Sequence record: OQ718158.1
DNA: 64,000 nucleotides
Strand: one strand, 5' to 3'
From: Escherichia phage vB_Ec-M-J
Program-made: the position numbers and the translations under genes
Shown: in pieces, positions 36,097 through 52,673 of the stretch
Layout of the letters: each line of letters starts with the position of its first letter
Numbering within the stretch: the stretch's first letter is position 1
The notes under the pieces: generated by a model
What the model saw: the letters and a program-made list of their open reading frames with translations, nothing else
Told to the model about the DNA's origin: nothing
Databases searched by the model: none

Positions 36097-38793
36097 ATGT
36101 CAAAGAAAATATATGGTGGCTTAGACGTCACTCATAATGTGACAGTTAAAGGGAAAAGAACAGTACAGGGCATCAATGAACAAGTATTTGATGCTAATGG
36201 TAATATGGAAATTGATACATATTCCAAAGAAGAATTACTTGATGTAATTAGTTTACTTCCAATCTCGCATTATGGTACACATAACTATCTACCTGCTGGG
36301 GTATCTGGTGATTTTAATGGTGCATCAGAAAACCAATCCCAACGTAGAAACAAAATACTTTTAGAAAACGATGGCACATTAGTACTATTACGTAGTGGTA
36401 CAAACGGTAGTGTTGAAGGTTTATTTTATTCTTACCTAGCGAACGCATTATCCGTTACCGATATGAGCCGTACTGTTAATACAAGCCGTCAGTATAAGCC
36501 TGGCTATTTTGGGGCAAACCGTGTTGCTATTGGTTTATACAATACCGATTCAAAAATACTGTTAGGTCGTTACAATGACACATCTACCAATACTAATGGG
36601 TTGTTTATATCAGTAACGAATGGTACATTGGATGATACTCAACATAGTGGTCTTTTTGTGAACCAAGCTGATATTTCACCTGAAGGTGGGATTGAGTATG
36701 CTATGATGGCAGAAGACGGTTCAGTTTATGTATTCAACGTCCTTAATGAAAATAACAAACTACAGATTGTTGTTGTTCGTGTTGTATTGAATATTGCAAA
36801 CGGTACTTATACTGCTACCCGAATCACGGGGTGGACAACAAAAACTTTTTACAATACTACATATACTGCTCAGAATAATATGATCATTACTGACCATGTT
36901 AACTCAACTAATATTGCTGATAAGCCCTATGTCTATGTACCACAAAATTTGGCTGGTATGGGGATTTATATGACATCTATCGATTTATATGTTGCTCAGG
37001 AGCCAGGAACGCAGAACTTCCGATTCAGAATGAATGGTGACGCATGGTTCACTATGGCAAACTACAATACCCGACCACAGCATAGTTATAGTTTCAATTT
37101 TAACATGAGTACTAAACAATGTAACTTGGATAATGGGAACGATATTGGTACATTTGCTGCACCATTTGTTGTTACAAACACAGGTTCGGCATTGGTTGCT
37201 ACTGGTAATGTTCTCAACAACGATCCGTTATATGACCATAGCGGTGCAAGAAACATTTACAGTTCATATTATTATTTGAATACAGGTGAAGTATTCTGTA
37301 CTGCATGTCCAAACTTAGCAGAACCATTACTTATGCAGAAAGCTAAATTTACTGCACAATCAATATATAGCATGATTAATGTACGTGCGAACATTTCAAC
37401 TGATTTCAGAAATGGCATAGTTCGTCCTTCATTTGGTTCAGCAGTTGGTTCTTTTATTAACGGCGTAGAATTGCTTCCAGGGAACAGTACTAAACAGTAT
37501 TCTCGTTCAACTGGTTCTGGTGCATTCCGTCCATCTTATGCAGTTCATAAAAGTACTCCTAACTTTACGTTTAATTCTTTATCACGTGGAACCATACAAG
37601 GTTATGAGCCAACAACAGAACGTGCTAATGTGACAGATAACACGAACAACAGAGTTTTTATTAGTTCCATTAGTGGTAATAATGTTACTACAAATGGTGG
37701 GATATTCATGGTAGGTCAGAGATATTCCCAATCACTATCATATGATAAAAATATGAACGGAACTGGTATCATTAGTGTTACTCAATCTGTACTTGATAAT
37801 TTCAGAAATGCTGAATACGCCAAAGTACTAAGCGACTGGAACTTATCTTCTGCTGCTTATAAAGATATGACATTGTTTGTTCCACAACAAACTGATATAC
37901 CTGCATTCGTAATGCTAAGTACAGTTACAAATACATATCAGAACTATATTAGAATTGCTGAAGTGAATGTGAATACACGTTCAGGTAATATCACTACAAT
38001 TACCTTCAAGCGTTTAGTACTAGAAAACGTTTACGGAAGTAACTTTACACCAAATGGTAATGGTAGTTTTGCATTGTCTTCTGTTGGTTTAACAATATAT
38101 GATGGTGGTTCTTTCTACTTCATAGGTGGTTCTGACCCATTATCTCACCCAACTATTGGTAATACAAACACACACCAATTCAGAGCATATGTAACAAAAG
38201 CAACTGCACAATTTGATAGTTTTATTATCAGTGGTTCACATGCAAGTTATGAGCAAGGTATTCAACCAGCAGCTTTACCTGGTATTGGTTTTGGTTATTT
38301 CCAAGCAATAGACTATGTAAACAAAATGACTTTCCAAAAATGTGGTACTACAATTGCTGATTATAATAACTGGACTGCTCAAGGTGCACCGATTAACGTA
38401 GTTTCACAAGACGTTGCTCAAGGTTTTATTGTGTACTTCACAGAAGAAACTCCAGTAATTCTTTCTGGTAAAGCATTTACATTACCGATTACTAGTATAA
38501 ACTTAACTACAGTTAAGGCTAATCCAGCAAACACATTATTTCATGTATATGTTAAAATGGAACAAGGTAATGCAAAATATGTAATAACAACTGATGTTAT
38601 TTCAGAGACTGGTACTACAGCATATAATATTTTCTGGATAGGTACTATACAAACAAACTCACTACAAATATCAAATGTTAACATACAAAAACGTTCAAGA
38701 TTGGATATTTTCGGTGCGTCACTTGAAGCTGCTGGTTCTTCATTCCCAGTTAGTTATGGTCTACCGTCACAAACAGGAACAATCAATTGGTAA
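36097..38793 (+). CDS. tail-fiber-like / putative receptor-binding protein, paralog A (898 aa)
   Basis: Asn/Thr/Ser/Gly-rich; shares N-terminal LPIS.YG and C-terminal ~130-aa module (VVSQDVAQGF...FPVS.G.P.QTGT..W) with 38806 and 39410. Confidence 0.65.
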   Translation: MSKKIYGGLDVTHNVTVKGKRTVQGINEQVFDANGNMEIDTYSKEELLDVISLLPISHYGTHNYLPAGVSGDFNGASENQSQRRNKILLENDGTLVLLRSGTNGSVEGLFYSYLANALSVTDMSRTVNTSRQYKPGYFGANRVAIGLYNTDSKILLGRYNDTSTNTNGLFISVTNGTLDDTQHSGLFVNQADISPEGGIEYAMMAEDGSVYVFNVLNENNKLQIVVVRVVLNIANGTYTATRITGWTTKTFYNTTYTAQNNMIITDHVNSTNIADKPYVYVPQNLAGMGIYMTSIDLYVAQEPGTQNFRFRMNGDAWFTMANYNTRPQHSYSFNFNMSTKQCNLDNGNDIGTFAAPFVVTNTGSALVATGNVLNNDPLYDHSGARNIYSSYYYLNTGEVFCTACPNLAEPLLMQKAKFTAQSIYSMINVRANISTDFRNGIVRPSFGSAVGSFINGVELLPGNSTKQYSRSTGSGAFRPSYAVHKSTPNFTFNSLSRGTIQGYEPTTERANVTDNTNNRVFISSISGNNVTTNGGIFMVGQRYSQSLSYDKNMNGTGIISVTQSVLDNFRNAEYAKVLSDWNLSSAAYKDMTLFVPQQTDIPAFVMLSTVTNTYQNYIRIAEVNVNTRSGNITTITFKRLVLENVYGSNFTPNGNGSFALSSVGLTIYDGGSFYFIGGSDPLSHPTIGNTNTHQFRAYVTKATAQFDSFIISGSHASYEQGIQPAALPGIGFGYFQAIDYVNKMTFQKCGTTIADYNNWTAQGAPINVVSQDVAQGFIVYFTEETPVILSGKAFTLPITSINLTTVKANPANTLFHVYVKMEQGNAKYVITTDVISETGTTAYNIFWIGTIQTNSLQISNVNIQKRSRLDIFGASLEAAGSSFPVSYGLPSQTGTINW

Positions 38794-39409: not shown

Positions 39410-42139
39410 ATGTCATCCAAACGCATCATTGGTAGTGCTGCTATACTTGGAAATTTAGCAATTGGTGGAAAGTACGCTATGCGTACTTTTAATGGTACAG
39501 CACCAGACGCAAATACAGGTATTGTTGACTATCCAATTTATAAAAGATCAGAAGTTCAAAAAATACTTGATATGTTACCAATCTCCCGTATAGGGGAAAT
39601 GGATTATCTACCATTAAACGTTAATGGTTCATACGAAGGGGCAACGTCGCTTTCAGATGTATACCGTATGCAACCAACAATAGTCGAAGATGATGGTACT
39701 GGTGTGGTATTACGTGCTGGTACAAATGGTAGTACTGAAGGATATTACTATGCATTCATTCGTGATTTGCGTAATATTGATGCACTAACACAAAGTAGTG
39801 TTATCAGTACTACATCAAAATATCATCCTAGAATTCTTCCAAGTACTGAAAATGTTAAACAGTTTATCGGAACGAATGGTTATGAATTACTAGTTAGCCT
39901 ATCTAGTGCAAGTAATTATATTTTCACTTTAACAAATGGTACATTTAACGAAGTTGCACATATTCACGCTTCTATCGCTGCTACATCATTTGGTACAGAT
40001 AAACCATTGTATGCACATATCGTTAATGATAAAGTATTTGTGTGGTGCAAAGACACTACTATAGCAAACTATGGTTTGGCTTTAACATTATATACTGTTA
40101 ATACAAGTAGTATTAAAGATGGTACTATGAGTACTTTTGCTAAGGTTACTGGTTTTTCTGGTCAAACCTTAAGAAGTGTTAACTACACAAGTGCTAATAA
40201 TTTGAAAATTTATGAAAGATTATATTCAGTTGGAACTAGTAGTGATTCATTATTTGAATGCACTTCACCAGTTACACGAGTTGAATATTCAGATTATACA
40301 GATTATAATATACAAGCAAACGTAAGTCCAGATTTATCAAAGATTAGAATTACATTATTTCCAACTAACCGTTTAGTATCAAATCTATATATTAGTACTG
40401 TTTATGCTAGTGGTTTTAGTTTTGTTTATACTATCAACTCTAAATCATTATCAATTGATGGAAGTAGTAGAGCACCAATAGCAGCGGAATATAATGATGT
40501 TGATGGATTCACATTAACAAACCCATTTGCCATTGAGATGAACAACTTCATGGGTACACAGTTAGGTGTTCCGCAATTAGGTAACGTTGGTTCTATATGC
40601 CAAACCTATGACGGTTTAGTATTCAGTACTCGTGCTCGTTGGAGTTCTTCTGAAACCTATGGTATTCAGGTTTATAACGTAACAGGAACACCATATGATA
40701 GTTGGGTTGCCAGTACTCGCAAAGCGAACAATTCTAAATTTGTAAACGTTGCCCCAACATATGGTAGTGCAGTAGGTGAAAACCTTTTAGGAACACGTTT
40801 TATTGATAAACGTAAAGTACTGTTAGCATGTTCTGGAACATATGAAGATGAGTCATATGGTTATAACAATACAGTATTTTCTGAAATTGGCACTGATCCA
40901 ACCTTCCAGTTCAATTCAGTACAAAACAATACAACACTTAATGGTTTTGCACCACAAGCCAACCGAACTCGCCTCGGCGACAACTACAAATATACAGGTA
41001 TGATTTCATTAATTGATACTGACGGTTCAGTTAAATGTTATGGGACATCATTCATTGAAGGTGTATACAAAACAAGTGGTGGTTTGTTTAACCCAGATAC
41101 TTTAGAATTTGATGGTTCTTATACAATTGGTGATAATGTTCTGGAAACATTAAAACAAGAAATACTTGCTAATATTGGAATAGTAGGAGCATTTACTGGT
41201 AAAATTGCTTTATATTATGTACCAGATAGTTCTTTCTCAAAATCTATTGCGGTGGTTTCTGCATATAACTTAGGAAATAACCAAGGTTATGCAATATATT
41301 CTGAAGTTGATGTCACTGTTTCAGGAACCAATATTAGTTCTGCGTCTATGGTGAGTTCTAGATACGAAACACTTAATTCTGTAACAGGTATTGTAACCGA
41401 AGCCTATATGAAACGCTGTACTGGTCTAACTGTTGCTAAGTATTCTGGTTTTGGTTATATTGGTGTTGATGCAGTTCATCAGTTTTCACAACCTGGTAAT
41501 GCTCAATTCAAATTGATGATTGCTAAAACAGTGAATGGTTTGATTACATCTAACCGATTTATGTCATCCAGCTACATAGATAATGGCAATGCATTCCAGC
41601 ACGGAGTTATACCAGGTGTTGGATTTGGATACTATCATCTTCAAGATTCAGATTATCAAACTAAAGCAGTGTTTAGTCTCTTTGGGACAACATCAGCACA
41701 GATGGATGGGTTGATTGATGGTTCAGGAACTGTACAAGATAAAATCGTAGTAGTTTCACAAGATGTTGCTGAAGGTTTCACTGTGTACTTCACCCGTGAA
41801 GTTCCGGTATTCCTTGGTGGTATGTTTGATAGATTAGCGATTCAAACCATAGAATTAAGTACTATTAAAACTAACCCAGCTAACAGTACTTTTTATCTTT
41901 ACATTCAAATGAACCGTAACACAAGAAAAGCGGCATACGTTATCAGTACAACTCTTCTTGATGAGACATTGACAAACGTATATGTTGGTGATATTGTTAC
42001 TGGAAGTACGAGTATTACGTCAATTGATACTGAAAAGGTAACCCGATTCTTGACATACAGACCTAGTACGACCAAGCGTGGTTCTGCTATCCCAGCAAGT
42101 ACTGGTGTTCCTTCAAGCTCTGGTACACGTTGGCATTAA
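39410..42139 (+). CDS. tail-fiber-like / putative receptor-binding protein, paralog B (909 aa)
   Basis: Collinear similarity to 36097 (GTNGS.EG..Y, VVSQDVAEGFTVYFT, C-terminal RPSTTKRGSAIPASTGVPSSSGTRWH). Confidence 0.65.
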   Translation: MSSKRIIGSAAILGNLAIGGKYAMRTFNGTAPDANTGIVDYPIYKRSEVQKILDMLPISRIGEMDYLPLNVNGSYEGATSLSDVYRMQPTIVEDDGTGVVLRAGTNGSTEGYYYAFIRDLRNIDALTQSSVISTTSKYHPRILPSTENVKQFIGTNGYELLVSLSSASNYIFTLTNGTFNEVAHIHASIAATSFGTDKPLYAHIVNDKVFVWCKDTTIANYGLALTLYTVNTSSIKDGTMSTFAKVTGFSGQTLRSVNYTSANNLKIYERLYSVGTSSDSLFECTSPVTRVEYSDYTDYNIQANVSPDLSKIRITLFPTNRLVSNLYISTVYASGFSFVYTINSKSLSIDGSSRAPIAAEYNDVDGFTLTNPFAIEMNNFMGTQLGVPQLGNVGSICQTYDGLVFSTRARWSSSETYGIQVYNVTGTPYDSWVASTRKANNSKFVNVAPTYGSAVGENLLGTRFIDKRKVLLACSGTYEDESYGYNNTVFSEIGTDPTFQFNSVQNNTTLNGFAPQANRTRLGDNYKYTGMISLIDTDGSVKCYGTSFIEGVYKTSGGLFNPDTLEFDGSYTIGDNVLETLKQEILANIGIVGAFTGKIALYYVPDSSFSKSIAVVSAYNLGNNQGYAIYSEVDVTVSGTNISSASMVSSRYETLNSVTGIVTEAYMKRCTGLTVAKYSGFGYIGVDAVHQFSQPGNAQFKLMIAKTVNGLITSNRFMSSSYIDNGNAFQHGVIPGVGFGYYHLQDSDYQTKAVFSLFGTTSAQMDGLIDGSGTVQDKIVVVSQDVAEGFTVYFTREVPVFLGGMFDRLAIQTIELSTIKTNPANSTFYLYIQMNRNTRKAAYVISTTLLDETLTNVYVGDIVTGSTSITSIDTEKVTRFLTYRPSTTKRGSAIPASTGVPSSSGTRWH

Positions 42140-42146
42140 AAATTTT

Positions 42147-42177
42147 AAGCTCGTCTATTGACGGGCTTTTCTTTTAT
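42147..42177 (+). terminator. rho-independent terminator
   Basis: AGCTCGTC-TATT-GACGGGCT (one mismatch) followed by TTTTCTTTT. Confidence 0.6.
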
Positions 42178-42186
42178 GTGTATAAT
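42158..42186 (+). promoter_or_regulatory. sigma70-like promoter overlapping the terminator
   Basis: TTGACG 42158-42163, 17-bp spacer, TATAAT 42181-42186 preceded by TGTG. Confidence 0.45.
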
Positions 42187-42209: not shown

Positions 42210-42776
42210 ATGGTCAAATCTTTACTACCACCACCAAAGCGTCACAAAATCCAAGAAATGAAAGACCAACGTACATTAAAGATGTACAACAATTTAGTTA
42301 AGTTACTGTGTAAAAGTCCATCGCTCAAAGCAGAGTTTAAAACTGATGATGACCGCAAAGCACTAATTGAGATGAAGTATATGCTCAGTAAAATGTCCTT
42401 TTACAAATTTGTAAAAGAATACGCATCTGACCCATTTAGTCCTCGTTGGAGAACCAAACCAAGAGAGTTTTTTTTCGGTGGTTCATATACTGATATCATT
42501 CAAGATACTGTGATAGGCGTAGAGTTCGAGATTGATTATGAGCCGAATGGTGTGGAAAACTTGCTGATTGAGAAACGTTTACCAAGTGAAGAAGAAATTT
42601 ATGTTTATGCAAGAAAACTTTCAACTTACAGTTCAAGAATTACTCTAGGCAAGTTAGATTCATTTATTATTTTCTATATACGTGTTGGCGTAGACAAAAT
42701 GGTAACTAAACTCAATGAACTTTCATTACAACAAAAACAGATTAATGCATACAAAGACATTACTGATTTATACTAA
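42210..42776 (+). CDS. small paralog family member 1 (188 aa)
   Basis: Shares N-terminal motif (SPSLKAEFKTDDDRKALIEMKYMLSK) with the next two genes. Confidence 0.55.
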   Translation: MVKSLLPPPKRHKIQEMKDQRTLKMYNNLVKLLCKSPSLKAEFKTDDDRKALIEMKYMLSKMSFYKFVKEYASDPFSPRWRTKPREFFFGGSYTDIIQDTVIGVEFEIDYEPNGVENLLIEKRLPSEEEIYVYARKLSTYSSRITLGKLDSFIIFYIRVGVDKMVTKLNELSLQQKQINAYKDITDLY

Positions 42777-42788
42777 TGAGGAATGAAT

Positions 42789-43304
42789 ATGTTTTTTGGC
42801 CCAGTTGGAAAACAAAACAGTACTTTAATTTGGCATGAAATTATCTTTAAAATTATATCAAAAAGTTTCACACTTAAAGATATCATCAATACAGATCAAG
42901 ATCGTCGTGTTCTGTTAGAAGCAAAATATAAATTGAGCAAACACCCTTTGCTACCATTAATCATTGATTACGTTAATGATTATGAATCCAGTCGTTGGAA
43001 GTTTGAAGAAGGCGGTTTATTTCGTGGAAAAACATTCTACGGTGCGGAACGATATGTATTCAGTGATGCAACAAATGGCGTTAAGTTTGCTATTAGAAAC
43101 TTTAACTCCAAAGAAAATGATTATCTTGAAAGTGGAGTGAAAGTATATATCGATAACAATAGCAATGTTCTAACATATGACGAATCACTAATTATGTTAC
43201 AAATAATGCGTGGCGTTGAAGGTGTAAGACACAATCTTACTAATTTGAAAATTCAGCAAAATGATATACATAATAGACAGAAAATTAAGGGTTTATATAA
43301 ATGA
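42789..43304 (+). CDS. small paralog family member 2
   Basis: FTLKDIINTDQDRRVLLEAKYKLSK; ATG 42789 with GAGGA RBS. Confidence 0.5.
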   Translation: MFFGPVGKQNSTLIWHEIIFKIISKSFTLKDIINTDQDRRVLLEAKYKLSKHPLLPLIIDYVNDYESSRWKFEEGGLFRGKTFYGAERYVFSDATNGVKFAIRNFNSKENDYLESGVKVYIDNNSNVLTYDESLIMLQIMRGVEGVRHNLTNLKIQQNDIHNRQKIKGLYK

Positions 43305-43810
43305 TTTCATTTTTCAAAAAGAAAGAAAAAGTTGATGAAACTGGATTAGAATCGTTTCTATGGACTCTTATCATCAAAAAAAGTCCATTGATAAAAGAAT
43401 ATGCCATCAATGATACTAATAGAAAAACTATCATTGAATACAAATACGAATTAGCAAAATGTGATCCGATTGTTTACCACTTCGTAAAGTACTGTTCTGA
43501 AAATTTATCGGATATCACTATTGAACACGAGTCAGTACCAATGAGTTTTCCTTATGGAGATTGGGTATATACTTATGATATTTTTGATGGGTCTAACGGA
43601 TTCAGTTTTTATTTCACATCAAATAAAGCATATGTTCGAATCAAAACAGATATAGGTTGGGTATTGCATAGCACAAATAAAGAAGATTATAATTTATTAG
43701 CTGATGTATACAGAAGTGTTAAGAACTCAAAGGATATTGATGAAAGAATTAAAAAGCAAAATCGTATTTCTTTATCAATAGAAACATACAAGTCAAAGTA
43801 TGGTGGTTAA
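43301..43810 (+). CDS. small paralog family member 3
   Basis: SPLIKEYAINDTNRKTIIEYKYELAK; ATGA overlap. Confidence 0.5.
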   Translation: MISFFKKKEKVDETGLESFLWTLIIKKSPLIKEYAINDTNRKTIIEYKYELAKCDPIVYHFVKYCSENLSDITIEHESVPMSFPYGDWVYTYDIFDGSNGFSFYFTSNKAYVRIKTDIGWVLHSTNKEDYNLLADVYRSVKNSKDIDERIKKQNRISLSIETYKSKYGG

Positions 43811-43812
43811 CT

Positions 43813-44214
43813 ATGACTACAGTTGATGATATCTACAGTACTATACGAAATATGAGTACAGATAGAAAAGTGTTTGGTGACAAAGAAAAGTCAAAATGTT
43901 ATGGCATCGATTCTTTTGATATTATTTCATACGAATATAATAACAACGGGACCAGTTCACTAAACATTGTGTGTCCACGAGATCCAGAAAATAATTTCAT
44001 GTACGTTGAAATTAACAATGATGGTATGTTCTTTACTAAAGTATATAAAGGTGGGAAAGAATACGAACCCATCGAAGTAATGAATGAAGAGAAATTCTTC
44101 CAAGAAGATACCATCATCAATCTTGGATTTAGTTACAATGACTATCAAGTACTGGATCATGATTTTAAACGATACTATAATGGTTTTCTAAAGGAGTTAA
44201 CGATTTACTTATGA
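43813..44214 (+). CDS. hypothetical protein
   Basis: Track ORF. Confidence 0.5.
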   Translation: MTTVDDIYSTIRNMSTDRKVFGDKEKSKCYGIDSFDIISYEYNNNGTSSLNIVCPRDPENNFMYVEINNDGMFFTKVYKGGKEYEPIEVMNEEKFFQEDTIINLGFSYNDYQVLDHDFKRYYNGFLKELTIYL

Positions 44215-45449
44215 AAAACAATTTTCTAGAACAAACTATTGTGAAACACTTAGCTGGTTCACAGGCGTATGGCACAAGCACACCAGAAAGTGATACCGAT
44301 TATCGTGGTATCTTCCTTGCAAACAAAGAATTTATCCTAACTCCTTTTTTTAATGTTAAGGAAGTTTCAGATCCTTCTGAAGAAGATACTAAATTTTATG
44401 AAGTCAATCAGTACTTAAGTCTGTATACTGAAGCTAACCCAAACATTCTTGAATCACTATGGGTTAAACCTGAACACATCGTAGAAAGTACTGAAATCTA
44501 TGACTATCTACGCTCATTCAATCAGCAATTATTGAGTTCAAAGATTGCACACTCATACAGTGGATATGCATACAATCAGGTTAAGCGTATGTCTAATCAC
44601 CACGGCTGGCTCGATAAGGAACGAATTGCTGAACGTAAACTAAATGAAATTTTAGAAGAACATCCAGTTGACGAAGTACTTTCATGGATGTATGATACAT
44701 TCCCGCAGTATTTGGTAGACCGTTTGAATAAATCCAATCTTCACCCATTCAATGCTACAAAAATTGATTTTGAAAAATACATGCGTGATACTTCATTACA
44801 ATTAGTTTCAACACAAGCATTGAAACAATATCATTTTGTACGTTTAGTACATAATTATAGTACTGATAAAGTATTAGATCGTGATTTCAATTTATTGAAT
44901 TACAATTCAGGGTATGAACTAATCCATTACGGTGAAAACATCTTTGGGGTAATTATCAACCCGAATGAAAGTACAGTGAATGCTGATGGTTCACTACGTT
45001 ACTTCAACAAAGAACGTACTACAGAAGAATTGAAAGTTCGTCCTGAACTCATTGTAAAATTCAATGAAAAGGAATACAAAGAAAATAGTGAGAACCGTAA
45101 GAGTTATCACAAATGGAAGCAGAATCGTAATGCCAAACGTGCTATTCTTGAATCACACCACGGTTATGACTGCAAACATGCTATGCATACAATCAGGCTG
45201 CTGAATACAGCACAGGAAGCACTTGAAACTGGTATCATCCAAGTTCACCGACCGGATGCTGCTATGTTGATGGACATTCGTAACGGGAAGTGGTTGTATC
45301 AAGAAGTTATGGATTATTTCAACGAAAAGGTTGACTACATCCGAAATGTGGCGTATCATAAGACCCATCTACCGAAGCGACCAAACATAAAGTTGGCTAC
45401 GAAGGTACTATTAGATATCCGTGAAATGCAATGGTACAGTAAAAAATAA
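44211..45449 (+). CDS. Pol-beta-superfamily nucleotidyltransferase (RlaP-like)
   Basis: N-terminal hGS-x9-D-x-D motif (AGSQAYGTSTPESDTDYRG) recalled as typical of RlaP-type predicted nucleotidyltransferases. Confidence 0.55.
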   Translation: MKNNFLEQTIVKHLAGSQAYGTSTPESDTDYRGIFLANKEFILTPFFNVKEVSDPSEEDTKFYEVNQYLSLYTEANPNILESLWVKPEHIVESTEIYDYLRSFNQQLLSSKIAHSYSGYAYNQVKRMSNHHGWLDKERIAERKLNEILEEHPVDEVLSWMYDTFPQYLVDRLNKSNLHPFNATKIDFEKYMRDTSLQLVSTQALKQYHFVRLVHNYSTDKVLDRDFNLLNYNSGYELIHYGENIFGVIINPNESTVNADGSLRYFNKERTTEELKVRPELIVKFNEKEYKENSENRKSYHKWKQNRNAKRAILESHHGYDCKHAMHTIRLLNTAQEALETGIIQVHRPDAAMLMDIRNGKWLYQEVMDYFNEKVDYIRNVAYHKTHLPKRPNIKLATKVLLDIREMQWYSKK

Positions 45450-45459
45450 GAGGATTGTT

Positions 45460-45876
45460 ATGCTAAACGAACAAATCAAAGACGCACTACGTGTACTGAA
45501 TCGCGAAGTTAACCGCATCCAGAAAAGTACTGATCGTTATAAACTAATGCATGAACTTAGACTTTCGTTGGAAGCTATCAATAATGGCGAATGGTATCTT
45601 GAACCAGAATATCGCACACGTGAACTAACTGACGTTGAAAAAGCAATTGTCAAATTCATTACAAGTCGCGACAAAAATGCATCCGAAAAAGATGTATCAA
45701 TGAACTTCCATCTTACTAAATGTGAAGTCGTGGAAAAATTTAAATTCGATTGGCTTGACTGGATTGAAATGATCATGGAACTTGAAGAAGAATTCAAAGT
45801 TGAAGTTGATTTGGAATACGAGAATGAAAACACTAAACTGTATAAACTCGTAGATCATATTCAAAAAATGTTGTAA
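45460..45876 (+). CDS. ACP-like (acyl-carrier-protein fold) protein lacking the phosphopantetheine-attachment serine
   Basis: C-terminal FDWLDWIEMIMELEEEFKVEVD resembles ACP helix II ([17 protein letters not shown]) with Ser replaced by Trp; ATG 45460 with AGAGGA RBS. Confidence 0.5.
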   Translation: MLNEQIKDALRVLNREVNRIQKSTDRYKLMHELRLSLEAINNGEWYLEPEYRTRELTDVEKAIVKFITSRDKNASEKDVSMNFHLTKCEVVEKFKFDWLDWIEMIMELEEEFKVEVDLEYENENTKLYKLVDHIQKML

Positions 45877-45929
45877 ACATATAATATAGTACACTCTAAA
45901 TAATATTACCAACTATAGGAGATGTTATT

Positions 45930-46304
45930 ATGAGTGTACTAGAAATTATTGTTTCAAAAGTTTTAATACCATATTGGAAACCAATTTTGGTAGTAGGAGT
46001 AATGGCAGGTTGTGTTTACGGTGGATGGTCAGCAAATACTTATTATACTGGTTATAAAGAAAGTATTGACCAAAAAATAGAAAAGAAAGTTGATTCTGCA
46101 CTCGCTAAGATGCAGCAAGAAAATGCAAAAAACTATATAGAAACCAAAAAGATAATGCAAGATAATGCTAAAGTTATCGAGACACAAGTGCCTATTATAG
46201 TAGAAAGAGAAGTTTACAAAAATGTATGTCTAGATGAAGATGGCGTTAAACTTCTGAATGAACTTAAACAGAATTCCCTTGCAGCGAGGAATAAATTCAA
46301 ATGA
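45930..46304 (+). CDS. i-spanin-like (Rz-type) inner-membrane protein
   Basis: N-terminal TM helix then charged coiled-coil-like region; ATGA-coupled to a downstream lipoprotein gene. Confidence 0.55.
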   Translation: MSVLEIIVSKVLIPYWKPILVVGVMAGCVYGGWSANTYYTGYKESIDQKIEKKVDSALAKMQQENAKNYIETKKIMQDNAKVIETQVPIIVEREVYKNVCLDEDGVKLLNELKQNSLAARNKFK

Positions 46305-46615
46305 AATACGCTTTAGTATTTGCAATTTCTTTTCTATTAATTAGTGGTTGTGCTGAAGAAATTAAGTATCAACCTAAACCAATTGTAGAACAAGAAATCT
46401 TACTTGAACGTTGTGACGAAAATACACCACTACCAAGTAAAATCATGGTCGATAAAAACGGGTTCAGAGGATATGATGGTGCTGAAATTCTTGCAGTACT
46501 CGTAAAATGGGATGCAATGTACAATGACTGTGCACTAAAACATGATGCATTAATTAAAACTATTCGTGATTTACAAAATCAAGATGTTAAGGTTAAAATT
46601 AAATCCGAGGATTAA
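46301..46615 (+). CDS. o-spanin-like (Rz1-type) lipoprotein
   Basis: Signal peptide with lipobox LISGC immediately downstream of the i-spanin-like gene. Confidence 0.55.
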   Translation: MKYALVFAISFLLISGCAEEIKYQPKPIVEQEILLERCDENTPLPSKIMVDKNGFRGYDGAEILAVLVKWDAMYNDCALKHDALIKTIRDLQNQDVKVKIKSED

Positions 46616-46617
46616 AA

Positions 46618-47229
46618 ATGTCAAAATATCAGGTCTACTATGTTGCCAAACTATCACTTCTTGATGAGTTAAATCAAAGAAGTACACAGATGAAACGCTA
46701 TACATATAACGGTGTTACTTTCCGATACTTCCCACAAAAAGTACTTACATTCGTTAAGAATTGTAAATGCGTTGCGTGTGGTATTGAAGCTACTGAAGTT
46801 CGCATTGAGCGTTCACATAGCACTGATCCGGTATATGGTAAACCTCACTTAAATGTCTATGCAGTTTGTGGTCTATATGAAGTACTGATGACAGTAGATC
46901 ATAACCAACTAGCATCTAAGGGTGGACCTGATTTAGAGTCAAATTACAACACAATGTGTTCACGTTGTAACAGTCTTCGTTCTAATAAAACTGAATCAGT
47001 AGGTGAATTCCTGGAAAAAGTTAAGGGTAGAAATCTACTGGAAGAGCATATGAATGATTTTTTCAATAAAGATAAGAAGAAATCTAAAACTCCTACTCCA
47101 GAAGAATTGGAAGAACGCCGTTTACGTACAGAACTATGGGAAACCGACCATATATGGCATGTTCGTGATTTTGGACGACATATGAAAGCTCTAAAAAAAG
47201 AACAAAAGAAATTGAATAATCACAATTAA
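46618..47229 (+). CDS. HNH endonuclease (possible free-standing homing endonuclease)
   Basis: HNH signature VDHNQLASKGG...N..CSRCNSLRSNK plus CKCVACG zinc motif. Confidence 0.6.
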   Translation: MSKYQVYYVAKLSLLDELNQRSTQMKRYTYNGVTFRYFPQKVLTFVKNCKCVACGIEATEVRIERSHSTDPVYGKPHLNVYAVCGLYEVLMTVDHNQLASKGGPDLESNYNTMCSRCNSLRSNKTESVGEFLEKVKGRNLLEEHMNDFFNKDKKKSKTPTPEELEERRLRTELWETDHIWHVRDFGRHMKALKKEQKKLNNHN

Positions 47230-47239
47230 TATGTTATGA

Positions 47240-47273
47240 TAGGGACTTGAGAAATCGAGTCCCTATTTTTTTG
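47240..47273 (+). terminator. rho-independent terminator
   Basis: TAGGGACT...AGTCCCTA hairpin followed by TTTTTTT. Confidence 0.75.
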
Positions 47274-47283
47274 GAGAAAATAA

Positions 47284-47640
47284 ATGAAATCTAAAATCTT
47301 TTTACCGCAGTTAATGTGGCATCTGGCAGAGTTAGATGAAGATGATGAATATACTGACTATGGTACATGGGATGACAGTACTGAATCATTCAATCCAGAT
47401 GTTAAGTACAAAATCATTAGTAATGAAAGTAAAGGGTATAGACGATGGACAGAAGAATTTGATCTAGTTTTTCTTGACATGAACACGAACAAATATTATC
47501 ATTGTACGTATGAACGAGGTTTAACAGAAGATAGACCAGCAGAACCATTCAGAAATGAAACTGATGGTGTTAAGTGCTATGAAGTTTCTGTTACCAGAGA
47601 AGAAATTATCACTTATCGAACTTTGTGGAAATATTTGTAA
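47284..47640 (+). CDS. hypothetical protein
   Basis: Track ORF. Confidence 0.5.
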   Translation: MKSKIFLPQLMWHLAELDEDDEYTDYGTWDDSTESFNPDVKYKIISNESKGYRRWTEEFDLVFLDMNTNKYYHCTYERGLTEDRPAEPFRNETDGVKCYEVSVTREEIITYRTLWKYL

Positions 47641-48038
47641 TGCTAAAAGAATTAGATTTTTCAAACTTAGAAATCATCAGTGCTGTTAAAAATATCTCTG
47701 ACTTTGGAGATGAGAAGTCAGTACTGGTAACTGTTACATTCGTCAAAGAACAGGATAGCTATAGCCATTTAGATGGTATTGAAGAACTAATTCACAAGAC
47801 TAATCTACAAAACGATGGTAAACTCATTAAGCTTCAGGCTTCCTATACGCAAAAATCGTCATTTTTTGTAGACCTAAATAATGTAGTCAAGGTGGTATAC
47901 AATCACCCTGAACACAAATACAGGAACACGACAAGAAACGAGAATGATGCTATAGACTCCAATATCAAAGAGGATGTCGAATTCATCAACACAATTTTTG
48001 ACCGTTGTTCCAAGGATTTGAAAAAGGTATACATGTAA
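47625..48038 (+). CDS. hypothetical protein
   Basis: Track ORF; start uncertain. Confidence 0.45.
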   Translation: MEIFVMLKELDFSNLEIISAVKNISDFGDEKSVLVTVTFVKEQDSYSHLDGIEELIHKTNLQNDGKLIKLQASYTQKSSFFVDLNNVVKVVYNHPEHKYRNTTRNENDAIDSNIKEDVEFINTIFDRCSKDLKKVYM

Positions 48039-48039
48039 C

Positions 48040-48067
48040 GGGACATAATACATCCTAGTGATATAAT
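48040..48067 (+). promoter_or_regulatory. sigma70-like promoter, extended -10
   Basis: GGGACA 48040-48045, 16-bp spacer, TGaTATAAT with TATAAT at 48062-48067; fires into a region without a convincing ORF. Confidence 0.55.
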
Positions 48068-48073
48068 GTATAT

Positions 48074-48590
48074 TGTAAAATGACAACGGACATTGAAAAA
48101 TGGATAATGAGAACCTACTTCTCTTGAAAATGTAAAGGATAGATGAGCTTTACCGTTGTAGCGAACAGCAAAAGAAACCTGTTAGAGTACTGGCAATCAA
48201 ACAAACACGAGATAAGACCACGAATCACGGCGACACGGCTGTATAAAGAACTCCAATAAGCACACAGAGAGTTCCTAGATAGATGTATAAGGTTCGCACC
48301 TTACGAATTTGCTAAGGGAGTTCAAGGATTGTGGACGCGATTTTACAAGAAAGTTGCGTCCAAAATTTGAGAACAGGTACTACTTTGATCGAATAGAGTT
48401 TAGTACTGAGTGCTGTTGATGAAAAGACCAGCGACCGTTGCATATGACTGCGATAGAGAGAAACCGAGCAACCCGCTTTCGCTCTCTAAATTTTGGTACA
48501 GGAAAGATCCGTCCAAAATTTGAGAAATTCGCAATTCGATAATATCCGATGCCATCATCGTCAAGAGAGACTTAATTGTCTCTTTTTTAT
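48074..48590 (+). ncRNA. candidate noncoding transcript(s) of unknown class
   Basis: Promoter-to-terminator unit of ~0.5 kb, visibly GC-richer than surroundings, several hairpins, a ~28-bp imperfect direct repeat (48347-48374 and 48503-48530), no plausible ORF. Confidence 0.3.
48564..48590 (+). terminator. rho-independent terminator
   Basis: AGAGAC-TTAATT-GTCTCT followed by TTTTTT. Confidence 0.7.
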
Positions 48591-51768: not shown

Positions 51769-52096
51769 AGGACAAACTCAATATAAGTGTATTGAAGAAA
51801 TCAGAAAGAAAGATGGAACACTTTTTGACAGGAAATTAAAACAAGAATATAAAGACCTAAGAGATGTTATCCGAAATGAAAGTTTCGGTGGGAAGCGTAG
51901 GCAGAAGATTTATGAATTTCTGAAGAATGGTGTAGAAATTCAAGTCAATGGTCTTCATTGTGTACAAACCAAAAACGATCCAGATATTTTACGTCTTTTA
52001 AAAGAGGGTAAAATAGAAATGTTCAATATCCCAATTTCATCCTATGGTAATAGATTAAAATGTAAGCACACGTACTTAAGGATTAAAAATGGGTAA
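51758..52096 (+). CDS. hypothetical protein
   Basis: Track ORF. Confidence 0.45.
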   Translation: MALRGQTQYKCIEEIRKKDGTLFDRKLKQEYKDLRDVIRNESFGGKRRQKIYEFLKNGVEIQVNGLHCVQTKNDPDILRLLKEGKIEMFNIPISSYGNRLKCKHTYLRIKNG

Positions 52097-52673
52097 ATTA
52101 GTATATTACTATGGTAGTATGTCTAGTGGTAAAAGTACTCATCTTTTACAAAAAGCATATAACCATAAGAAAAATGGAATGAAGGTAATTTACTTAACCA
52201 GTGCACTTGATGATCGTTATGGAACAGGAAAGATTACTTCAAGAATTGGCATCGAAGCTGAGGCTGAAGTAATTCCAAAAAATGACATTAGTGTTCTTCT
52301 TAAAGTTAAAGAAACACTCAAAAATGACGTTGACATTAACAGTATCTATGTTGATGAATGTCAATTTTTAAACAGAGAACAAATTGACCATTTAGCTGAT
52401 ATAGCAGATAATTATGGTGTTGATGTTTCCTGTTATGGAATCCGAACAGATTTTGAATCCAATCTTTTTGAAGGTTCACAAAGACTGTTCGAAATAGCTG
52501 ATGACATACATGAACTTAAGAACGTGTGTGAGAATCAGAAGTGTGGCAAAGAAGCCACTATGAATGCCCGTATAGTTGAAAGTACTGATAAAGTCTTTAT
52601 TGGTGGTGATGAATCATACAAGAGTCTATGCAGAACTTGCTATATGGATTATATGAGGAATAAAAATGGTTGA
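52089..52673 (+). CDS. tk: thymidine kinase
   Basis: P-loop GSMSSGKST, VDECQF, GIRTDF..LFEGS, C-terminal Cys pairs, as in T4/E. coli Tdk. Confidence 0.85.
   Translation: MGKLVYYYGSMSSGKSTHLLQKAYNHKKNGMKVIYLTSALDDRYGTGKITSRIGIEAEAEVIPKNDISVLLKVKETLKNDVDINSIYVDECQFLNREQIDHLADIADNYGVDVSCYGIRTDFESNLFEGSQRLFEIADDIHELKNVCENQKCGKEATMNARIVESTDKVFIGGDESYKSLCRTCYMDYMRNKNG

Follow-up and report, generated by a model that had tools for sequence, protein, structure and literature searches.

The ACP-like gene and its product

We analyzed a 64,000-nucleotide stretch of the genome of Escherichia phage vB_Ec-M-J (OQ718158.1; hereafter the window), in which a gene at 45460..45876 (+ strand) encodes a 138-amino-acid relative of acyl carrier protein (ACP). 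In this protein the serine that carries phosphopantetheine in ACPs is replaced by tryptophan, and the ACP recognition helix is retained. The open reading frame (ORF) begins with ATG at 45460, with GAGG at 45450-45453 ahead of it as a ribosome-binding site (RBS), and ends with TAA at 45874-45876. The ATG was taken as the true start, rather than an upstream GTG at 45421, because the homologues all begin MLN. The product belongs to the phrog_18343 family (E 3.2e-43, residues 2-138 of 138). Comparison of the window sequence places the phage among the RaK2/121Q-like jumbo coliphages. At positions 44000-47300 the identity is 99% with Escherichia phages Ecwhy_1, WPEC5, CMSTMSU, WPEC3, and fEgEco12 and about 78% with 121Q/PBECO4 (genus Asteriusvirus), and all long ORFs of the window lie on the + strand.

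Public names for the gene conflict: it is called hypothetical protein, acyl carrier protein (phAPEC6), acpP (Sharanji), carrier domain-containing protein (ph0011), or D-alanyl carrier protein 1 (fEgEco12). The carrier names are misleading for the Trp-type proteins, which, judged from their sequence, cannot carry a group at the canonical site.

The first-pass annotation of this DNA had proposed an ACP-like C-terminal segment around FDWLDWIEMIMELEEEFKVEVD (residues 96-117), and profile searches confirmed it. The protein matched phrog_5934 ("acyl carrier protein") at E 3.6e-8, the phage ACP family phrog_4154 at E 1.7e-4, and NCBIfam TIGR00517 at E 8.6e-6; the NCBIfam matches were of the AcpP type and not DltC or PCP. 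In a phmmer search of all PDB sequences, E. coli ACP was the top match (E 0.003), with D-W-L-D-W aligned to D-S-L-D-T and vekfkfDWLDwiEmiMeLEEEFkvEv as the aligned stretch of the ACP-like protein. A search with the family profile reached canonical PF00550 proteins at E 5e-11 to 1e-7. The curated cut-offs were missed: the protein scored 13.2 bits against the Pfam PP-binding gathering threshold of 20.8 and 25.6 bits against the TIGR00517 cut-off of 70.45, and it fell likewise far short of the other NCBIfam ACP models. No match was obtained to the serine-less ACP-fold families of Pfam such as Ribosomal_L50, which two of 19 relatives touch at E 0.006. The ACP-like domain has the four-helix-bundle carrier fold. 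The similarity is far beyond chance, and the C-terminal domain descends from an ACP of the fatty-acid-synthase type.

This domain occupies residues 57-138 (45628..45873, + strand). It is preceded by an N-terminal domain (residues 1-56; 45460..45627, + strand), recognized from alignments and an AlphaFold2 model as a two-helix hairpin (helices 2-19 and 25-41) with a KSTDRY turn motif. Residues Q21, K22, S23, T24, R26, and Y27 are invariant in one family alignment (A1), and L10 and Y27 are near-invariant in another (A2); the hairpin domain has no Pfam match. The relative orientation of the two domains was left uninterpreted, as the model has a pTM of 0.65 and full-length superpositions on BFVD structures gave rmsd values of 10-17 Å. 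The best viral-structure match, BFVD A0A2Z5HFQ2, is 98% identical over 137 aligned columns and is listed with 432 amino acids. That length is odd for a 138-amino-acid gene, and our guess is a mis-called or fused ORF.

Loss of the attachment serine and retention of helix II

The HMMER alignment, the codon table, and column counts identify TGG at 45751..45753 (+ strand), encoding Trp98, as the position of the phosphopantetheine serine (Ser36 of E. coli ACP). Trp98 is the first residue of the helix II equivalent, and EKFKFDWLDWIEM holds no Ser or Thr able to stand in for Ser36. The replacement of the DSL serine by Trp, put forward in the first-pass annotation, was thus correctly read, and its corollary that no prosthetic group can be carried appears sound for the canonical site, where phosphopantetheinylation is predicted to be impossible. 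A sequencing error was ruled out, as isolates and clades independent of one another have TGG at this position (WPEC5, 121Q, PBECO4, SD-2_S15, and the metagenomic proteins P0001-P0006).

The remainder of the helix II equivalent (D97-V116; 45748..45807, + strand) keeps the landmarks of the ACP recognition helix. The acidic residues D97, D100, E103, E109, and E110 correspond to D35, D38, E41, E47, and E48 of E. coli ACP. Column counts over 25 family members gave conservation of D35 in 25, D38 in 24, E41 in 23, M44 in 23, E47 in 24, F50 in 23, and E53 in 22, so that these landmarks are 88-100% conserved; the E48 equivalent is E or D. The Ser36 column of the same members contains S in 10, W in six, D in three, T in two, and other residues in the rest. 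The position equivalent to T39 is Trp in 21 of the 25, and all four exceptions retain Ser.

Among solved structures, the best match is E. coli AcpP, whose helix II is nearly superimposable in sequence (DxLDxxExxMxLEEEFxxE). The window protein differs from it by Trp at both Ser36 and T39, by the extra 56-residue N-terminal hairpin, and by a less acidic domain. With the defining serine missing, it is an ACP homologue and not a functional member of the ACP family. Significant profile similarity and BFVD structural matches also link it to the phage ACPs of phrog_5934 and phrog_4154 (for example those of ViI and Motura); these, however, are single-domain proteins of about 80-110 amino acids, whereas the window protein falls in a separate PHROG (18343) and has the N-terminal extension.

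Distribution and evolution of the family

Homologues were detected by tblastn in 44 phage records, all of them RaK2-like jumbo phages of Escherichia, Salmonella, and Klebsiella, at 30-99% identity. An exhaustive profile search of 1.8 billion representative sequences added divergent full-length relatives. In a second profile search Yersinia phage fHe-Yen9-03 (Eneladusvirus) was reached through its "acyl carrier protein" (E 1e-30), with PF00550 ACPs next in rank. A scan of IMG/VR with the family alignment gave no confirmed relatives. The N-terminal hairpin and the ACP-like domain are common to all family members, and this two-domain family is confined to RaK2/121Q/Eneladus-like jumbo phages. The closest relatives are the N-terminally extended ACPs of the Eneladusvirus type (fHe-Yen9-03 P0070 and Erwinia phages; PMC7760394), which by sequence still look like carriers. 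They have the same two domains and 138 amino acids and occupy the same slot (RlaP transferase, some genes, ACP, spanin pair, DUF7325). Unlike the window protein, they keep DSLD, pass the Pfam PP-binding model (PF00550), and have no Trp after the motif; overall identity is about 20%.

The residue at the Ser36 position varies widely. It is W in the window clade, 121Q, PBECO4, and SD-2_S15; S in UE-S1, ph0011, A4, P0008-P0011, and P0017 and in the Eneladus-type P0036, P0051, and P0056/P0070; T in P0007, RaK2, and Muenster; N or R in Turkey5/JNE01 and P0013; E in P0015; D in P0019, P0020, P0027, and P0043; and K in P0023. Serine looks ancestral because the deep-branching Eneladusvirus-type members keep DSLD. 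In a neighbor-joining tree, whose branch order is approximate as it was built from one short protein, the all-serine Eneladus-type group is deepest and at least five independent serine replacements are implied. The change of T39 to Trp may mark a functional shift that preceded the serine losses.

The gene is nevertheless maintained. All Asteriusvirus pairs gave a ratio of nonsynonymous to synonymous substitution rates (dN/dS) of 0.16-0.29, including 0.18 for the Trp-Trp pair of the window and 121Q at dS of about 0.9; the clades with the Trp allele share 72% identity. All 44 phage records and the divergent metagenomic relatives have an intact ORF. Because dN/dS is about 0.2 even for the Trp-Trp pair, the serine-less gene is old and maintained and not a pseudogene. 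Since the serine position varies while the other helix II landmarks stay fixed and dN/dS is about 0.2, the function under selection appears to be independent of the cofactor.

Conservation of the Ser-to-Trp change among homologues had been suggested as a check on the first-pass annotation, and it was not found; the column is hypervariable (S/W/T/N/R/E/D/K) in a gene under purifying selection. A column of this kind argues for a cofactor-independent role more strongly than a conserved Trp would, and it argues against a special role of Trp itself. A "plug" function of the Trp was accordingly judged unlikely, as the position is W, T, N, R, E, D, or K across lineages. Homologues that keep the serine, which the same annotation would have taken as a sign of a sequencing error or an ordinary carrier, do exist (UE-S1, ph0011, A4, and the Eneladusvirus type), but neither inference is supported.

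That the family still works as a carrier, of acyl or aminoacyl groups, and that the Trp lineage either attaches the group at a non-canonical site or represents a recent loss-of-function allele, seems to us scarcely credible. The window protein has no Ser or Thr at or beside the site, the Trp allele is old and under purifying selection, the tree implies that residues unrelated in chemistry took the place of the serine on at least five separate occasions, and the scores lie under every curated ACP cut-off; these points outweigh the PF00550 match with intact DSLD in Eneladus-type members, the Ser of the Asteriusvirus members UE-S1, ph0011, and A4, and the several GenBank records that name the protein an ACP. 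No AcpS-like phosphopantetheinyl transferase was found by tblastn in RaK2-like phages with an approximate E. coli AcpS query, a search that excludes close homologues only. This weighs weakly against a carrier, since a host enzyme could serve.

We likewise assign a low probability to the view that the protein has no role directed at the host and is either a remnant in decay or a component packaged in the virion. Loss of a catalytic residue would fit a carrier on its way to a pseudogene, but the dN/dS values and the uniformly intact ORF speak against decay. Packaging draws on the Eneladusvirus homologue, which was detected by liquid chromatography-tandem mass spectrometry in virion preparations (PMC7760394). 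In phAPEC6, on the other hand, the homologue gp313c is not in the 62-protein virion proteome, while the product of the neighboring tail fibre gene, gp314c, is. A virion role in Asteriusvirus is therefore unlikely.

Expression signals

Promoters were assigned as consensus matches only. A sigma-70 promoter (TTGACA-16/17-TATAAT) lies directly 5' of the ACP-like gene in 121Q, SD-2_S15, UE-S1, and Turkey5, and in A4 the TTGACA is kept with a weaker -10 element. In all five genomes the promoter is followed by a hairpin (-13 kcal/mol, z -5.1) and then by the RBS, and this arrangement is kept even at 36% protein identity. The order is unusual. In 121Q (L003 4926-4992) the sigma-70 promoter, a strong hairpin with a T-run, the RBS, and the ATG follow one another, and the transcript would begin within the 5' arm of the hairpin. 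A hairpin placed in this way might stop read-through from upstream and spare the transcripts of its own promoter.

The window does not have the promoter-hairpin spacer of its relatives. Its nearest counterpart lies upstream, where at 42147..42186 (+ strand) a terminator-like hairpin (-13.5 kcal/mol, z -6.7) overlaps a sigma-70-like promoter (TTGACG-17-TATAAT at 42158-42186; pattern match with one mismatch). Six tightly packed or overlapping genes follow at 42210-45876, of which the ACP-like gene is the last, and the hairpin-promoter element is probably the start of this presumed single unit. Over the whole window (1-64000), near-consensus sigma-70 sites (TTGACA-17-TATAAT, at most one mismatch) numbered eight against 2.2 expected; none of 100 shuffles reached eight, and all eight sites are on the + coding strand. 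Because sigma-70 promoters precede the gene in the relatives and a sigma-70-like promoter heads the presumed unit in the window, early expression driven by the host polymerase is suggested for the ACP-like gene, and we take its product to be directed at the host.

Upstream nucleotidyltransferase

The gene immediately upstream in the window (44211..45449, + strand) encodes a nucleotidyltransferase of the RlaP type within the Pol-beta superfamily (PF10127 E 4.2e-16; phrog_388 E 4.8e-75), which we regard as a neighbor only. The first-pass annotation had suggested that the two proteins form a module, and one could imagine the transferase modifying the ACP-like protein or being regulated by it. In the window the genes are 10 bases apart and probably co-transcribed, and an RlaP-type transferase was found zero to four genes upstream in each relative with an annotated or scanned upstream flank. 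The direct adjacency, however, is a derived state seen in the window clade only. In UE-S1 and ph0011 a spacer of about 135 bases with an annotated terminator and a promoter separates the two genes; three genes (two annotated as tail fibre) lie between them in 121Q, and three other genes in RaK2, Muenster, and fHe-Yen9-03; in A4 tail-fibre genes are immediately 5' of the ACP-like gene. Transferase homologues occur in 475 phage records (178 full length), most of them without the ACP-like protein and including many such myoviruses of about 145 kb, against 44 records for the ACP-like protein, and the candidate acceptor residue is not conserved. The module is not supported by these comparisons, and its probability is very low.

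Further upstream, 36097-38793 and 39410-42139 encode full-length paralogues of about 900 amino acids (26% identity, E 4e-54, no Pfam match), which may be fibre or receptor-binding proteins. The 121Q tail-fibre protein gp509, encoded between transferase and ACP-like gene in that phage, was considered as a moved copy of the 909-amino-acid gene of the window; there is no similarity, and gp509 is unrelated to both paralogues. Three consecutive genes at 42210-43810 (188, 173, and 169 amino acids) have weakly similar N-termini of about 45 residues (E 2e-5 and 1e-3), which suggests a tandem paralogue array.

Downstream spanin genes

Downstream of the ACP-like gene lie an i-spanin (Rz-like) gene at 45930..46304 (+ strand; phrog_1152 E 1.2e-27, N-terminal transmembrane segment) and an o-spanin gene at 46301..46615 (+ strand), whose product is a lipoprotein with the lipobox LISGC and a weak match to Pfam LysC (E 0.0045). 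The Muenster homologues are annotated as i-spanin and o-spanin. The order ACP-like gene, i-spanin, o-spanin was observed in every relative examined, including metagenomic ones at about 20-30% identity. The position of an ACP gene beside a spanin-like gene has already been remarked for Eneladusvirus phages (PMC7760394).

Between the ACP-like and i-spanin genes is a promoter-like motif, ACTCTAAATAATAT (45893..45906, + strand), about 24 bases 5' of the i-spanin ATG. The window, 121Q, UE-S1, A4, and Turkey5 all have this motif (also written CTCTAAATAAT), even where identity of the flanking protein drops to 36%, and RaK2 has the counterpart ACCCTAAATAT. It may be a phage-specific promoter, possibly of a late type. 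Looser copies with two mismatches lie at 60100-60113 and 61865-61878, a number not above chance. In Eneladus-type genomes the spacer between the ACP and spanin genes has instead a clear intrinsic terminator, with a promoter-like motif of the TAAATA type after it. Because a promoter-like motif or a terminator lies between them, the ACP-like and spanin genes appear to belong to different transcription units.

This arrangement bears on the main rival to a host-directed role, in which the protein would be an adaptor or structural subunit for a phage-encoded partner, with the ACP fold as scaffold and the hairpin providing specificity of contact; such a partner might be connected with the spanin/lysis genes or be another early phage protein. 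There are precedents for ACPs as structural subunits in complex I (SDAP/NDUFAB1), MmpS5L5-AcpM, EmbA-EmbB-AcpM, and Ycf2-FtsHi, from which the window protein differs in being predicted unable to carry the cofactor. The KSTDRY hairpin defines the family and is conserved whatever the state of the serine, which favors an adaptor, as does the universal gene order with the spanins. The promoter-like motif (Asteriusvirus, RaK2) or terminator (Eneladus type) that separates the genes counts against it; so does the i-spanin, which offers only about 17 cytoplasmic residues, and because the genomes are broadly collinear the adjacency carries little weight. We consider the adaptor unlikely, though a serious contender.

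The spanin pair is directly followed by an HNH endonuclease gene (46618-47229; PF01844 E 8.7e-6, phrog_23285 E 7e-112). An HNH gene is found at that position in most relatives (121Q, A4, ph0011, Muenster, L008) and is absent there in metagenomic contig L007. A strong terminator-like hairpin of 13 pairs with a T-run follows it at 47238-47267. A split thymidine kinase, suggested by the WPEC5 annotation, was rejected, as the window ORF at 52089-52673 is a complete thymidine kinase.

Possible decoy for host ACP-client enzymes

The absence of the serine from an otherwise retained ACP domain leads us to infer that the protein is a permanently apo binding module, acting through protein-protein contacts and not through acyl transfer. 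The mechanism that we favor, with a probability that we would put somewhat short of even, is that of a decoy for host ACP-client enzymes. The first-pass annotation had already proposed a mimic that titrates ACP-binding partners of the host, which is plausible. The decoy is favored because the closest sequence relative of solved structure is the host AcpP type, because helix II is the part that stays fixed, because the expression signals look early, and because there is a precedent in apo-ACP, which is known to inhibit glycerol-3-phosphate acyltransferase (PlsB) and to arrest growth of E. coli (PMC3896788). As in the proposed decoy, an ACP without its prosthetic group is there a dominant inhibitor of a client enzyme (PMC3896788). 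That case differs in that the inhibitor is the host's own unmodified protein, artificially produced, whereas binding of the phage protein to PlsB or another client is only proposed. SpoT is a poor candidate target because it is reported not to bind apo-ACP (PMC3896788). The category of phage ACPs in PHROGs is "moron, auxiliary metabolic gene and host takeover."

The history of the domain, as we read it, began with an ancestral form that had DSLD for attachment. The T39 equivalent became Trp in the Asteriusvirus/Alcyoneusvirus-type branch, after which the attachment serine was dispensable and was replaced several times independently, by Trp in the window phage and the 121Q clade. Purifying selection continued to act on the remaining recognition helix (the D35, D38, E41, M44, E47, and F50 equivalents) and on the gene as a whole. 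As a decoy, made early and directed at the host, the protein would occupy the site at which at least one ACP-client protein of the host binds ACP and would disturb membrane-lipid synthesis, and it could never be converted to the holo form. The N-terminal hairpin may add oligomerization or a second contact.

Several observations weigh against the decoy. Retention of helix II is also expected on structural grounds, through its cap and hydrophobic core, in any folded derivative of ACP; because of this structural part, the retained residues do not prove binding to host partners. The bulky or charged residues W, R, K, and E at the Ser36 position could hinder docking at the mouth of a client's active site. 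The ACP domain is less acidic than E. coli ACP (pI 4.69 with 12 K+R, compared with pI 4.05 with five). Conservation of the N-terminal hairpin in Ser and non-Ser members alike hints at a phage-specific partner, and an Eneladusvirus homologue has been recovered with virions, as cited above. In 43000-48500, promoter matches are in total just as numerous as expected from shuffled sequence. The host target of a decoy is in any case a guess.

A fuller account can be given, and we regard it as rather improbable in its entirety. The protein would be the first viral ACP mimic, turned from a carrier into a cofactor-free decoy after the Thr-to-Trp change. Expressed early from promoters of the host type, it would dock to PlsB, LpxA/D, FabZ, MukB, or other ACP clients and, in the course of jumbo-phage infection, halt or divert the synthesis of envelope lipids or some other process that depends on ACP. 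We found nothing on this family in the literature on phage ACP mimics or serine-less ACPs except the remark on ACP and spanin genes in Eneladusvirus, and the papers on fEgEco12, UE-S1, and phAPEC6 do not discuss the ACP-like gene; neither the loss of the serine nor a role without the cofactor was found described.

ACP is among the most connected hub proteins of bacteria. If the decoy mechanism is true, host takeover by means of a viral, permanently unmodifiable look-alike of ACP would be new in kind, and the several separate losses of the serine would be the trace left in evolution by a switch from carrier to decoy. Such a look-alike would also be a natural tool to find which ACP contacts matter in infection. 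The family offers a clean case in which a catalytic residue is dispensable, with at least five independent losses, and the binding surface stays fixed.
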